This document shows, in pieces, positions 17,308 through 21,125 of a stretch of 48,246 nt of DNA; the stretch's first letter is position 1; every line of letters begins with the position of its first letter. Location: positions 1 to 48,246 of the forward strand of contig JAFCCB010000001.1 of the NCBI GenBank assembly GCA_017610445.1, given 5' to 3'. Under the pieces are notes generated by a model. It searched no databases. It saw nothing but the letters and a program-made list of their open reading frames with translations, and was not told the origin of the DNA. The position numbers and the translations under genes were made by a program. Origin of the DNA: Candidatus Dojkabacteria bacterium (GTDB taxonomy: Archaea; Nanobdellota; Nanobdellia; Pacearchaeales; GW2011-AR1).

Positions 17308-17706
17308 TTATGGGCTAAAAACATATTTAAATTTCAGAGAAACTTCCTGATTTTTATTTAAAATCTCTTTCTCAATAATAAAATTTCCTTTATCAGAGAT
17401 TACGTCAGCATAATTATCAGCACTGCCTGAAAGTTTAACACTCTCTGCTAAATCATAAATTTTTTGCAAATGATAAAAAGAATTTATTTTCCCTGATTTT
17501 TGTCTTTTTTCAGTCAAACTAAAATTAAGCAAAGCAATCATGCACAAAGCAATAACCCCTAATACTAAAATTGTTATTGCAATATCTGCTTTTTTATCAG
17601 TTAAAAGCAGATATTCTGATTTTGATTTAACTTTTCTCGGAAAAGTTATTTCTTTGTTCAAACTTGTCTTTCTAAGAAAGTTTGCAATATCCCCTTGTTT
17701 ATTCAT
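17308..17706 (-). CDS. pilin-like protein with long conserved basic leader
   Basis: MNKQGDIANFLRKTSLNKEITFPRKVKSKSEYLLLTDKKA|DIAITILVLGVIALCMIALL. ATG 17706 overlaps the stop of the upstream gene; the ORF-track start 17757 is probably too far upstream. Confidence 0.6.
   Translation of the reverse strand: MNKQGDIANFLRKTSLNKEITFPRKVKSKSEYLLLTDKKADIAITILVLGVIALCMIALLNFSLTEKRQKSGKINSFYHLQKIYDLAESVKLSGSADNYADVISDKGNFIIEKEILNKNQEVSLKFKYVFSP
17620..17685. repeat. 66-nt leader-coding repeat, copy A
   Basis: 65/66 nt identical to 21054-21119. Encodes ANFLRKTSLNKEITF(P/L)RKVKSK. Confidence 0.9.
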
Positions 17707-18070
17707 TTTCAACCTCCAAATTACCATCATCAAGAACAACTTTTCTATTCCCAACATAAACTTCTGCCCTTAAATCATCAAGTTCTAGATTATCTAAAAT
17801 AAAATCAACATCTTTTTTAATCTCAGGATATCTCCCCTGTGAAACATAACCTCTAACTTCCATGCCATTAATTTCTGTCTGAAGCAAAGCCAATAAACTC
17901 TGCTCAGCATTAATATTTGAAATCTCTTTGCCTGAAAAATCTAAAACACCTCTTTCTTTTGCAATCCCATAAGAAGCAGTAACAAACAAAATAACCGCAA
18001 ATAAAATAATTATTGTTGCAACAACCCATGTCATTGTAGCGCCGATTGCAGCTTTTTTTTGTCTAAACAT
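17699..18070 (-). CDS. type IV pilin-like protein
   Basis: MFRQKKAAIG|ATMTWVVATIIILFAVILFV; its start overlaps the upstream stop by 8 nt. Confidence 0.6.
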   Translation of the reverse strand: MFRQKKAAIGATMTWVVATIIILFAVILFVTASYGIAKERGVLDFSGKEISNINAEQSLLALLQTEINGMEVRGYVSQGRYPEIKKDVDFILDNLELDDLRAEVYVGNRKVVLDDGNLEVENE

Positions 18071-18629
18071 TTTTCTTCACCTTCCCAACAGCACCAATAA
18101 CTTTTAATATAATCTTTTCCTGTTTTAAAGAATCTTCACTATTCTGTTCTGTGCTCACACTATCAGGGTCTGTAACAAACAACCCCTCAGAAAAATCCTG
18201 TTCTTTAGATAATTCTTCCTCTCTCAAAACATAAACCTCTTTTTCACTGCACTTCGGAATTTTATCACCCTTTAATCCACAAAATTCCAAAAAATCATTT
18301 CTTCCAAAATCCATGTTTTCTTTCAATTTTTCGCCAGAATTAAAATCAGATAATTCAATTCCCACACCATACTCTTCTTCTGAAAAATCAAAATTGCAAA
18401 ATTCTAATAAATTAAAATTCTTGTCAAAAACACTTTCATTTAACACTCCCTGCTCTGTCAAACAATCAATAACCCTGTCGCTTAAAATCCCTGCCTCTGC
18501 CTCTCTTACATCTAATCCAGAGCCATAAACCAGCAAAACTCCTGAGACAATTCCAATCGCAACAATAATATAAATTATAAAAAGATAAATGCTTAATACT
18601 CTCTCACCTGCTTTTTTATTTTTTATCAT
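18063..18629 (-). CDS. type IV pilin-like protein
   Basis: MIKNKKAG|ERVLSIYLFIIYIIVAIGIVSGVLLV; 5 Cys in the extracellular part. Confidence 0.6.
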   Translation of the reverse strand: MIKNKKAGERVLSIYLFIIYIIVAIGIVSGVLLVYGSGLDVREAEAGILSDRVIDCLTEQGVLNESVFDKNFNLLEFCNFDFSEEEYGVGIELSDFNSGEKLKENMDFGRNDFLEFCGLKGDKIPKCSEKEVYVLREEELSKEQDFSEGLFVTDPDSVSTEQNSEDSLKQEKIILKVIGAVGKVKKNV

Positions 18630-18795
18630 CTTTTTTGTTCTTAATTTTTATTTAATATCTATTAAATTTTTAAGTTGTGTTGATGAACACTTTTAAAGGA
18701 AAGTTGATGCATAAGAAAACCATTGGTTGTCTTAGCTCTGTTCTTCATCCCTTAACTTTTTATAAGATATCAGTTTTATTATTTTATCCTCCTTT

Positions 18796-19179
18796 TCATT
18801 TTACAACCAAAACCAAATAATCTTCTTCAAATTTATATTCAACATTAACATCATTAAAATAACCATAATCATAAAAACTATCAGCGCCTGCTTTAGCAAC
18901 AACCAAATTTTTTTCATTATCAATCTCTATGCTTTTTTCCTTAGCAACCTCATTCTCTCCTGCTTTTTTAAAAAAATCCTGCAGATTAATTTGAATTTCT
19001 GTTCCAGGTTTTGAACTATCAATCAACAAAGCAATCTGCTTGGCAGTTCCCTCTTCTATCAAAGACGTTGAAGAACTCTGCAGATAAATAAACACAATCA
19101 TAACTGAAAAAAACACAACATTCAAAATAATAAAAATAATCTGCTCATGTAAAATATTTGCTTTTTTATTTTTCATCAT
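18796..19179 (-). CDS. type IV pilin-like protein
   Basis: MMKNKKA|NILHEQIIFIILNVVFFSVMIVFIYL. Confidence 0.55.
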   Translation of the reverse strand: MMKNKKANILHEQIIFIILNVVFFSVMIVFIYLQSSSTSLIEEGTAKQIALLIDSSKPGTEIQINLQDFFKKAGENEVAKEKSIEIDNEKNLVVAKAGADSFYDYGYFNDVNVEYKFEEDYLVLVVK

Positions 19180-19290
19180 TTTATTATCTCAATATCCCAA
19201 AAAAAATTTAAGTTTCTCATAACATATTTTTTAGTTTTAAAGAGTTACCCTTTTTTTTATTAATTTTTAGTTTTCAACTAAATAATCCCC

Positions 19291-20214
19291 CTAAATTTCT
19301 GAAACATATTCTTTGCAATCAAGCGCCTCTAATTCCTTGCCATTAAATTCTAAGTATCTTGGTGCTGTCTGTTGAGTATCTTCTGTTGCAGAACTAGTCC
19401 AAATTCCTCCAATAACTCCTGCAACTGTTCCAACTCCTGCCCCAATAGCAGTTCCTAATCCTGGAGAAATAACTGTTCCAATTTTAGCACCTTCAAAACC
19501 TGCAGCAGCCCCAGCTCCACCAACAGCAAGAATACCAGCAGGAATAGTCCATCCTTTACTCCAACCTTTTTTAATTATTGAAGTTATAACAACATATTCC
19601 TTAGAAGAATTTATTTTATAATCATAAATATCATATTTCCCTTTATCTAAAATTGCCTGCCTAACACTCTCCAAAGAATTCATTCCATAAATATTAAATA
19701 TATATGTCTCATCTTTATTAGGAATTTTATTTGTTTTCATAAAATCATAAATTTTTAAATAAGAAATTCCTTCAGGATATTTTTTTTGAATTTCAGAGTC
19801 AAAATAAATCTTATCACAAATAGAACAATAAGCTTCACTAATGCCCATCCCAGAAGACATGTAATCAACTTTTCCTTCACCCATCATCCACCAGCAATCA
19901 TACAGCAAACCAGCCATCTCTTCAATTAATTCATTTTCATTATCAACTTTTATTATAACCATATCTTTTCTGCTAACATCACAACCTCCACCCATACTTA
20001 AACAAACATCTTGCGTCTTGCATTTTAATTGAACCATATCTTTTCCAGCAGGCAAAGCCCCTCGCATTATTACAGAATTTCTACAGCTCTCTTTATCAAT
20101 AGTTGATTTCAAATGCAGCATAAAAAAGAAACCTAAAATAATCACAAAACTGATAATCAAAATTATGATTGTAATTAACTGCTTAGATGTCAATTCCCCT
20201 TTTTTTGTTTTCAT
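19291..20214 (-). CDS. type IV pilin-like protein with Cys-rich core and C-terminal glycine-zipper segment
   Basis: MKTKKG|ELTSKQLITIIILIISFVIILGFFF; 9 Cys; C-terminal GILAVGGAGAAAGFEGAKIGTVISPGLGTAIGAGVGTVAGVIGGIW. Confidence 0.65.
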   Translation of the reverse strand: MKTKKGELTSKQLITIIILIISFVIILGFFFMLHLKSTIDKESCRNSVIMRGALPAGKDMVQLKCKTQDVCLSMGGGCDVSRKDMVIIKVDNENELIEEMAGLLYDCWWMMGEGKVDYMSSGMGISEAYCSICDKIYFDSEIQKKYPEGISYLKIYDFMKTNKIPNKDETYIFNIYGMNSLESVRQAILDKGKYDIYDYKINSSKEYVVITSIIKKGWSKGWTIPAGILAVGGAGAAAGFEGAKIGTVISPGLGTAIGAGVGTVAGVIGGIWTSSATEDTQQTAPRYLEFNGKELEALDCKEYVSEI

Positions 20215-20338
20215 TTTTTTAATTTATTATTTTTTATTAGTATCTTTTTTTATTTTAATTTAAAGTAATAAGTTCTTATATTTTAATTTTTTTATTCCAT
20301 ACCTTAATATTTTGTTAAGTTAATAAATATTATTATCA

Positions 20339-20461
20339 TTAACTCACTCCAAATCTTTTAAATAAAAAATACAAACCTAATAAAGCTATGCCAAAAAAAA
20401 TAATCCACAAAATAATTTTCATCAAATTTTCCATAACAGCTTTTTTATTTATTTTTTTCAT
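20339..20461 (-). CDS. mini pilin-like protein (40 aa)
   Basis: MKKINKKA|VMENLMKIILWIIFFGIALLGLYFLFKRFGVS; hand-translated, below the ORF-track cut-off. Confidence 0.4.
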   Translation of the reverse strand: MKKINKKAVMENLMKIILWIIFFGIALLGLYFLFKRFGVS

Positions 20462-20570
20462 TTTATTATTTTTTTATTATTAATTAATATCTGATTCTAA
20501 GCTTGCTTTTCTATTCTTCACAGCTTAAAATTTTATAAGGATATTAATATTTATTTTATTAGGTTATTGG

Positions 20571-21125
20571 TTATTCTTCATTTTTCTCCTCAATAATATA
20601 ACCATTATCATATTTAATATTAACATCAGTCCTTATTTTAATATTAAACTCATTAATTTTCTCATCAAAATTCTTGCAAACTCCTCTTGTCTCGCATTTT
20701 TCTATTTGAGTATCTGCCCAAATCAGACCTTTTTTCCATTTACCTGTTTCAACAGCTTCACATAAACAAATACAATTTTCAGTGCATGCATCTGGCTTTT
20801 CTATTCCAGAATAACTTATTAATCTCCAACCATTTGGTTCTAATAAAGGCAGACTAATTTCTCCTGATTTTGCATCAATCATTTTTTCATCCAAACTTCC
20901 AAGGGTTGACTCTGCTCTTTTAAAATTCTGTTTTTCTGTAAAACTTGAATAAAAAATAAACAAAAGATACAGCAGTAAAATAATACTCAAAACAGCAATT
21001 ATTATTTTCAAGGTATATTCCCCTAATAAAAATCCTCTTTTATCCCTGCCTGCTTTTGATTTAACTTTTCTCAGAAAAGTTATTTCTTTGTTCAAACTTG
21101 TCTTTCTAAGAAAGTTTGCTTTCAT
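20571..21125 (-). CDS. type IV pilin-like protein with long conserved basic leader (G|FxxxE cleavage-type site)
   Basis: MKANFLRKTSLNKEITFLRKVKSKAGRDKRG|FLLGEYTLKIIIAVLSIILLLYLLF has Glu at +5 as in classical type IV pilins. 6 Cys. An ATGA overlap joins it to the upstream gene. Confidence 0.65.
   Translation of the reverse strand: MKANFLRKTSLNKEITFLRKVKSKAGRDKRGFLLGEYTLKIIIAVLSIILLLYLLFIFYSSFTEKQNFKRAESTLGSLDEKMIDAKSGEISLPLLEPNGWRLISYSGIEKPDACTENCICLCEAVETGKWKKGLIWADTQIEKCETRGVCKNFDEKINEFNIKIRTDVNIKYDNGYIIEEKNEE
21054..21119. repeat. 66-nt leader-coding repeat, copy B
   Basis: 65/66 nt identical to 17620-17685. Confidence 0.9.

Follow-up and report, generated by a model that had tools for sequence, protein, structure and literature searches.

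Why do two genes that otherwise differ from each other begin with almost the same long, basic leader? The genes in question are a pair of pilin-like genes on the minus strand of contig JAFCCB010000001.1, in a stretch of 48,246 nucleotides (nt) that was analysed as a whole and is referred to here as the window. The original prediction had noted that a near-identical 66-nt repeat encodes the N-terminal leader of both, and had offered three readings: very recent gene conversion, selection at the nucleotide or RNA level, or a dedicated pro-peptide recognized by something other than the prepilin peptidase. The evidence presented here leads to another answer. The repeat is very probably not a pilin feature at all, and instead represents two young copies of a dispersed element of about 70 nt, termed E, that belongs to this genus of Pacearchaeota.

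The Repeat Pair and Its Two Genes

Self-comparison of the window returns a 70-nt repeat with 97% identity at 17616-17685 and 21050-21119, both on the minus strand. Within it, the 66-nt core (17620-17685 and 21054-21119) agrees at 65 of 66 positions, exactly as had been claimed, and the sole mismatch lies in the loop of the second of two hairpins (hairpin 2). An exact 45-nt core occurs twice in the window and in none of 100 shuffles. The two copies, A and B, are located 3.4 kb apart in one locus, and their identity of 98.5% makes them the closest pair in this genome. Both are in frame within an open reading frame (ORF), gene A and gene B respectively (Table 1), where they encode ANFLRKTSLNKEITF(P/L)RKVKSK. 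The repeat follows a few codons after an ATG that overlaps the stop codon of the upstream gene, a description that also holds, with an overlap of 8 nt in gene A (ATGAATAA) and of 4 nt in gene B (ATGA); E begins 20 nt and 6 nt past this ATG, respectively. The predicted leaders are as long as first described, at 40 amino acids (aa) in A and 31 aa in B. After the part encoded by the repeat, both proteins feature a motif resembling that of a class III signal peptide (DKKA/DIAITILVLG in gene A; DKRG/FLLGEYTLKIIIAVL, with E5, in gene B; the slash marks the predicted cleavage site). Inspection of the two sequences places K or R at position -2 and G or A at -1, with a hydrophobic helix after them. Neither protein is matched by a pilin model of Pfam or NCBIfam, and the label pilin-like refers to this N-terminal motif and to the genomic context.

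A Dispersed Two-Hairpin Element

Counting copies in the genome and in related metagenome-assembled genomes (MAGs), as the original prediction had proposed, shows that the repeat is multi-copy and is not confined to the 5' ends of pilin genes. The genome from which the window derives (G000, an 833-kb MAG of 72 contigs with a GC content of 28.5%) contains at least 8 copies in a whole-genome search, that is, at least 6 besides A and B. The further copies are more diverged and are found on contigs C44, C10, C52, C45, and C9; a weak copy is present on C38. All of them are in sense orientation and directly ahead of a start codon, for example that of lysS (C44), of a GTPase gene (C9), or of the gene for a 1000-aa surface protein (C52), and the copy on C10 has stop codons in the frame that is read in the pilins. 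Across the genus, E was found in 23 of 49 species genomes at 1-18 copies each and is absent from the remainder, although the compared genomes are MAGs of 60-96% completeness and these absences are soft. The exact core pattern matches 24 loci in GTDB species genomes, nearly all of them labelled Pacearchaeota or Nanoarchaeota and originating from several unrelated studies. A viral origin of E was considered and rejected, as the same pattern has no match in IMG/VR. Copies of the same subtype in other species share 92-96% identity with copy A while residing in unrelated genes, and the host proteins of these species are about 45-86% identical.

The sites that E occupies are diverse. They include, in sense, the 5' ends of unrelated genes (lysS, ftsZ, iscS, RNase P RNA, aminoacyl-tRNA synthetases, and pilins) as well as the 3' flanks of tRNA genes, where E is found 2-3 nt downstream of the tRNA, once in the 16S-23S spacer, together with a 9-nt duplication of the tRNA 3' end. 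One copy (L053, G022:C106) is situated inside an rRNA operon, with the spacer tRNA on one side of it and the 23S rRNA gene on the other. The original prediction had also considered a generic mini-repeat scattered through coding and non-coding sequence, and this is in essence what E turns out to be, with the difference that its placement is non-random and falls at transcript 5' ends. A further regularity was seen in genome G005, where 18 of 18 copies are on the + strand of contigs C1 (648 kb) and C2 (146 kb; loci L028-L042 and L095-L114). On C1, just 58-60% of long ORFs are on the + strand, and G-C skew is positive over the whole contig. This one-strand placement suggests a strand specificity tied to replication or to high expression.

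In all of these settings E has the same anatomy. It begins with (G/A)CAAACTTTC, continues with hairpin 1, an unpaired TTTGAACAAAGAA that is strongly conserved across copies, and hairpin 2, and ends with the tail AAAYCAAAAKCA. Copies A and B have a fold energy of -14.3 kcal/mol. When 20 base pairs were scored in 33 distinct copies, 96.4% of the base-pair cells were paired, as opposed to 30-65% with the partners slid. Compensatory changes were seen in 5 pairs, and CG, UA, GC, and AU are all used to close hairpin 2. The fold is thus constrained, either as RNA or as single-stranded DNA. A search of Rfam with 7 loci, at E-values up to 1, gave no family match. By eye, E lacks the C box of a C/D-box small RNA, and its two separate hairpins differ from the single hairpin of an attC-like site; both identities were rejected. 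The 5' end, (G/A)CAAACTTTC, shows no complementarity to the 3' end, AAAYCAAAAKCA, and E accordingly has no terminal inverted repeats. Whole or partial E units also form tandem arrays with a period of about 65-131 nt (L052, G017:C15; L056, G022:C73; L046, G024:C114; L034, G005:C2; L082, G043:C53). Modules that consist of hairpin 1 only or hairpin 2 only exist as well, and some are joined with other hairpins (L062) in a mosaic organization like that of bacterial interspersed mosaic elements (BIMEs). No description of such an element was found in the literature, and E is apparently an undescribed small two-hairpin insertion element of Pacearchaeota.

Insertion Architecture and Empty Sites

E is not simply located near gene starts; it is accompanied by a second copy of them. 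The typical layout is X1-E-X'-linker-X2. Here X stands for the initial 7-37 nt of the transcript that follows, in protein genes mostly starting exactly at the ATG, and X', located directly after E, repeats the final 7-13 nt of X as their reverse complement. Perfect layouts were found with an X of 17 nt (L033), 20 nt (L048), 21 nt (L029 and L031), at least 22 nt (L035), 26 nt (G000 C10), and 32 nt (L030). An exact direct repeat of at least 14 nt flanks 14 of the 38 full-length copies, whereas the 99th percentile of the mismatched-pair control is 13 nt. An exact inverted match of at least 7 nt is likewise present in 14 of 38, versus 9.6% of mismatched-pair controls. A bulge-helix-bulge intron was considered as a reading of X1-E-X' and rejected, since a check by hand indicates that removal of E would restore no consistent frame.

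Copy A retains this architecture in decayed form. Its X1 and X2 are equal at 20 of 25 aligned positions, and X' is GAATATC. X1 of gene A is preceded 7 nt upstream by GGAGGT and overlaps the upstream gene by 8 nt, while X2 encodes the ...DKKA/DIA of the predicted cleavage site. Because X2 has lost its ATG (ATG2) and one nucleotide is missing from it, the ORF that starts in X1 is in frame with gene A. Gene B reads as MK, 22 codons, and GRDKRG/FLLGE, which amounts to a clean 66-nt in-frame insertion.

Comparison with sister species shows the sites without their insertions. Orthologues of gene B in 6 species lack E and start with MNKKGE/FMLGEYTLK, MKSKKA/FLLGEH, or MKNKKG/FLLGEH. Orthologues of gene A in 4 species also lack E, and all start with MKNKKA/DIAITILV, encoded by ATGAAAAACAAAAAAGCAGATATTGCAA. 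Leaders are 6-7 aa in both sets, and both long leaders of the window are therefore insertions. The order of genes around A and B is conserved in these sister species (four other MAGs). Conversely, many E insertions of other species correspond to empty sites in G000. Sister species also have E in other genes of this cluster. The orthologue of 17699-18070 contains it in frame in G049, that of 18796-19179 contains two tandem in-frame units in G043, and in G009 E is found 1 nt ahead of the orthologue of 16383-16832. Insertion at a given gene can also recur. Two species have E immediately 5' of the gene for RNase P RNA, each with its own point of insertion (X is GAGTGAG in one and AGTGAGTAAG in the other), with X2 starting at position 1 of the RNA model, and this case shows that recurrent insertion of E does occur.

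Predicted Translation Through the Element

In a set of 528 long ORFs of G000, TATA-like hexamers show a sharp peak at -30 to -27 from the ATG, with 105-111 per bin compared with a background of about 25, and just about 10% of the genes have a Shine-Dalgarno-like motif. These observations indicate that most mRNAs in this genome are probably leaderless, such that the ATG of X1 (ATG1) would stay at the transcript 5' end after an insertion. A promoter inside E was rejected, as E and ATG2 are separated by a variable distance (about 0 to 27 nt) and the -30 to -27 position before ATG2 contains no TATA-like motif.

The frame behaviour of E is consistent across loci. Each copy has at most one open sense frame, and in 10 of 10 copies with an intact, ATG-containing repeat an ORF of 32-40 codons runs from ATG1 through E. 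These copies represent at least 8 independent events, for which the chance probability is about (1/3)^8. The stop codon of this upstream ORF falls -10 to +8 nt from ATG2, twice as an ATGA overlap and twice as TAAnATG. A fixed-length "ruler" between the two starts was considered, given that ATG1 and ATG2 are 109-116 nt apart in seven loci, and was rejected because the spacing ranges over 89-131 nt when all loci are included. It is plausible that the frame reflects a selective filter, whereby insertions would be kept only if they let ribosomes pass the hairpins and terminate beside the real start.

Taken together, these features suggest how a gene could survive the arrival of E. The element would enter the first 7-37 nt of a transcription unit in the sense direction, typically leaving X1-E-X'-linker-X2. 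Ribosomes would then start at the old terminal ATG in X1, traverse the only open frame of E, stop beside the ATG of X2, and restart there. In pilin-like genes the upstream ORF has instead become fused to the gene, so that translation of E lengthens the class III signal peptide; in gene A, this fusion came about through the loss of ATG2 combined with a 1-nt deletion. In-frame fusions of E to a downstream gene number 8, in 4 species, and all of them involve pilin-like genes: A and B of the window, the two tandem units of G043, one in G049, and three in G005. The simplest reason for this restriction is that an A24 prepilin peptidase discards the class III leader, so that extra residues cost little. 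The Peptidase_A24 protein encoded in the same locus (Table 1) is presumed to be the enzyme that removes the extended leaders. Judging from the motifs, it would cut after KKA in A and KRG in B and the whole leader would be discarded, which would render the extensions harmless.

Weighing the Explanations

One alternative, which we regard as unlikely, is that E is mainly a host cis-regulatory leader RNA that was recruited to a regulon including the pilins, with mobility being secondary. It could then serve as a binding site for a protein or a small RNA, or mediate translational coupling or attenuation through alternative X1:X' and X':X2 pairing. Hairpins maintained by compensatory changes, the strong conservation of the unpaired TTTGAACAAAGAA, and a consistent sense placement at 5' ends are all compatible with such a role, as is the 92-96% identity of E between species whose proteins share just 45-86%. 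X' is moreover able to pair with either X1 or X2, and X1 equals X2 within a species even though X varies between species. Nevertheless, the orthologues of sister species manage without E, half of the genus lacks it, and the set of associated genes is heterogeneous, comprising tRNA flanks, an rRNA spacer, RNase P RNA, aminoacyl-tRNA synthetases, ftsZ, and pilins. The duplicated starts are insertion footprints, and no Rfam family matches. The earlier suggestion of selection at the nucleotide or RNA level is borne out to the extent that both hairpins are kept by compensatory changes over 33 copies, but the constraint belongs to a dispersed element and is not a coupling signal specific to pilins.

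It is quite improbable that the two pilin genes owe their 65/66 identity to recent gene conversion or to a segment copied from one to the other, a reading that would make the repeat a feature of the pilin family. Two copies 3.4 kb apart in one locus, with an identity of 98.5% that exceeds that of any other pair in the genome, are what such an event would produce. On the other hand, the flanks of A and B share no homology, both orthologous genes lack the segment in other species, same-subtype copies with 92-96% identity are present in unrelated genes elsewhere, and in sister species E occupies different genes of the same cluster. Conversion is consequently not needed to account for the pair; the identity of A and B is most likely the result of recent insertion from one subfamily and of constraint on the sequence of E, and not of peptide function. 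It is very hard to believe that the 22 residues form a dedicated pro-peptide or targeting signal that is selected as protein and recognized by something other than the prepilin peptidase. The peptide is indeed strongly basic and is in frame in 8 pilin-like genes of 4 species, yet orthologous pilins do without it, and the same DNA is elsewhere non-coding or part of a short upstream ORF. In several copies the 5' half is read in a different frame (FEQR versus TSLNK), and synonymous and non-synonymous positions are equally conserved. An assembly artefact, that is, a collapsed or chimeric join at a short repeat, had been named in the original prediction as well and is a thought that naturally arises with a 72-contig MAG. 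It has next to nothing to recommend it, because four other MAGs have a collinear gene order to either side of each copy, the same architecture is present in many independently assembled genomes, and both ORFs remain open.

Several points nonetheless weigh against the insertion of a mobile element followed by harmless cleavage. To our knowledge, a class III leader of 31-40 aa exceeds any characterized in archaea, and the efficiency of cleavage is questionable. No transposase or other mobilizing enzyme for E was identified among the candidates considered (Y1, reverse transcriptase, and IS5). Copy B has no recognizable X2 or X', which leaves its mode of insertion less certain than that of copy A. 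Lastly, X1 and X2 are equal within a locus, yet 3-4 bases differ between species or paralogues, as in G000 C10:16810-16940 compared with L059 (G022), or in L029 compared with L031 (G005) and G000 C52. This pattern requires either that E entered one and the same site more than once or that X1 and X2 undergo concerted evolution, and such concerted evolution would hint at a host function.

A Possible Route of Integration

It is conceivable, and we put it forward tentatively, that E represents a class of archaeal mobile element with an undescribed route of integration that relies on host enzymes or on an unseen partner. As a matter of speculation, the 5' end of E might join the sense strand inside a transcribed region, at a depth of a few to about 37 nt, or else at the 3' end of a tRNA. 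X' could then arise as the other side is repaired by snap-back synthesis templated by the tail of the target, and the target might be re-copied from the first base of the transcript to give X2. An insertion of this kind could be undone by deletion between the direct repeats. If such a route exists, its outcome would be a ready-made upstream ORF with re-initiation and, in prepilin genes, new and longer signal peptides.

Other Features of the Window

Table 1. Coordinates of E, of the pilin-like genes, and of associated features in the window.
Feature	Position	Strand	Description
Element copy A (E)	17617-17685	minus	Hairpin 1 at 17659-17684; linker GAACAAAGAAA; hairpin 2 at 17628-17648; tail AAATCAAAATCA; in frame ANFLRKTSLNKEITFPRKVKSKS
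X1 of gene A	17682-17706	minus	ATGAATAAACAAGGGGATATTGCAA; old promoter-proximal copy of the gene start, decayed, still gives the start codon
X' of gene A	within 17608-17616	minus	GAATATC; short inverted copy of the target tail GATATTG, directly after E
Linker of gene A	17601-17607	minus	Separates X' from X2
X2 of gene A	17577-17600	minus	CTGATAAAAAAGCAGATATTGCAA; duplicate of the gene start that has lost its ATG and lacks 1 nt
Pilin-like gene A	17308-17706	minus	132 aa; 40-aa leader, then DIAITILVLGVIAL
Element copy B (E)	21051-21119	minus	Hairpin 1 at 21093-21118; hairpin 2 at 21062-21082; in frame ANFLRKTSLNKEITFLRKVKSKA
Pilin-like gene B	20571-21125	minus	184 aa; 31-aa leader MK-(E)-GRDKRG, then FLLGEYTLKIIIAVL; ATG overlaps the upstream stop (ATGA)
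Type IV leader (prepilin) peptidase, Peptidase_A24	13977-14822	minus	32.2 bits, cut-off 26.5
FlaI/TadA-like secretion ATPase	25424-27736	minus	Same type IV pilus-like locus
Weak degenerate E-like stretch	12470-12522	minus	Upstream of the OB-fold gene 11504-12439; nhmmer E = 0.27

The stretch at 12470-12522 may be an old, decayed copy of E or a chance match. Two other repeats of the window deserve mention in their own right. An IS5-family transposase gene (28619-29461) contains a perfect 34-nt tandem duplication at 28987-29054. The largest repeat family of the window is a 107-nt direct repeat with 75% identity at 3463-3569 and 5210-5316, with a spacing of 1747 nt.

Significance

An odd pair of very long pilin leaders can be explained as the footprint of an insertion element and not as a new secretion signal. 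As these leaders are a footprint, annotators should not infer function from the peptide that they share. More broadly, E constitutes a family of tiny elements in genome-reduced DPANN archaea that targets the first bases of highly expressed genes. The duplicated start codon would keep the target genes alive, survival would be limited to cases in which the old start reads through the element, and the element can apparently be absorbed into a signal peptide that is predicted to be cleavable. It may thus offer a natural test system for re-initiation on leaderless mRNAs, for the leader-length tolerance of prepilin peptidases, and possibly for a new insertion mechanism.

Comparison With Known Systems

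At the protein level, the window shares several characteristics with class III (type IV prepilin) signal peptides: K/R-G/A precedes a hydrophobic helix, and the locus encodes both an A24 peptidase and a FlaI/TadA-like ATPase. Bacterial type IVb pilins are known to have leaders of 15-30 aa. The leaders described here differ in that an extra 22-35 residues derive from an inserted repeat, are absent in orthologues, and show no sign of a role of their own. At the level of translation, the nearest parallel is termination-reinitiation coupling at overlapping stop and start codons, which is said to have been described in archaea by Huber et al. in Nature Communications in 2019. The upstream ORF of E similarly ends no more than 10 nt from the real start, twice as ATGA. 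The difference is that this ORF arises from an insertion in which the start of the gene itself is duplicated, and coupling is putative here.

Among retroelements, the target-primed retroposition of short and long interspersed nuclear elements (SINEs and LINEs) resembles what is seen with E in its variable-length target duplications, its A-rich 3' tail, and its preference for highly transcribed genes and tRNA flanks. The reverse transcriptase domain PF00078 is, however, absent from G043 and G011, which contain 10-11 copies of E, a weak negative given that these genomes are 82-85% complete. The distribution of reverse transcriptase thus lends no support to a retroposon, and E shows no sign of an RNA intermediate. 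Repetitive extragenic palindromic (REP) sequences and BIMEs with their REP-associated tyrosine transposases (RAYTs), along with palindromes derived from IS200/IS605, resemble E as hairpin modules that form mosaic or tandem arrays (G017, G022, G024 for E) and exhibit a one-strand bias (18/18 in G005). They make no target duplication and need a Y1 (HUH) transposase, whereas E duplicates its target. An origin of E from IS200/IS605 or RAYT was rejected, as PF01797 is absent from the E-rich genomes G005, G011, G022, G017, and G049, and the hairpin beside the Y1 gene of G000 is unrelated. The latter is found at C22:1-480, where a GC-rich hairpin, CCATCCACTTTAGTGGATGG...GGATGTCA, comes after a gene for a Y1 (IS200/IS605-type) transposase. 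At about 6200-6240 of C42, a motif that resembles it, CACTTTAGCGTGGAGAGGATGTCA, is located upstream of a surface-protein gene, and these GC-rich hairpins may constitute a separate REP-like system.

The mini-repeats Correia/NEMIS, ERIC, and BOX form hairpins, are present in many copies, and are co-transcribed with genes. Together with MITEs (miniature transposable elements that have inverted repeats), they are like E in their non-autonomous size, high copy number, patchy distribution, hairpins, and incorporation into mRNAs (PMC10969869). E departs from MITEs in its strict orientation and in the inverted target copy that follows it. A classical MITE was rejected because E has no terminal inverted repeats and its target duplication is variable (7-37 nt) as opposed to short and fixed, and the IS5-type transposase of the window was rejected as the mobilizer of E for want of the same terminal repeats.

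In behaviour, the closest relatives of E appear to be the Rickettsia palindromic elements (RPEs), with MITE- or REP-like mini-repeats that join transcripts also close. RPEs are small palindromic repeats with no known transposase that are found in frame in genes without destroying the protein (PMC10969869). E is likewise palindromic and translated in frame inside intact host ORFs, in the 8 fusions to pilin-like genes. RPEs are about 100-150 bp in length, bacterial, and located within genes at tolerated positions of the protein, whereas E is about 70 nt and archaeal. Furthermore, E occupies the first 7-37 nt of transcripts or tRNA 3' flanks, in sense only, where it duplicates the gene start and usually creates an upstream ORF.

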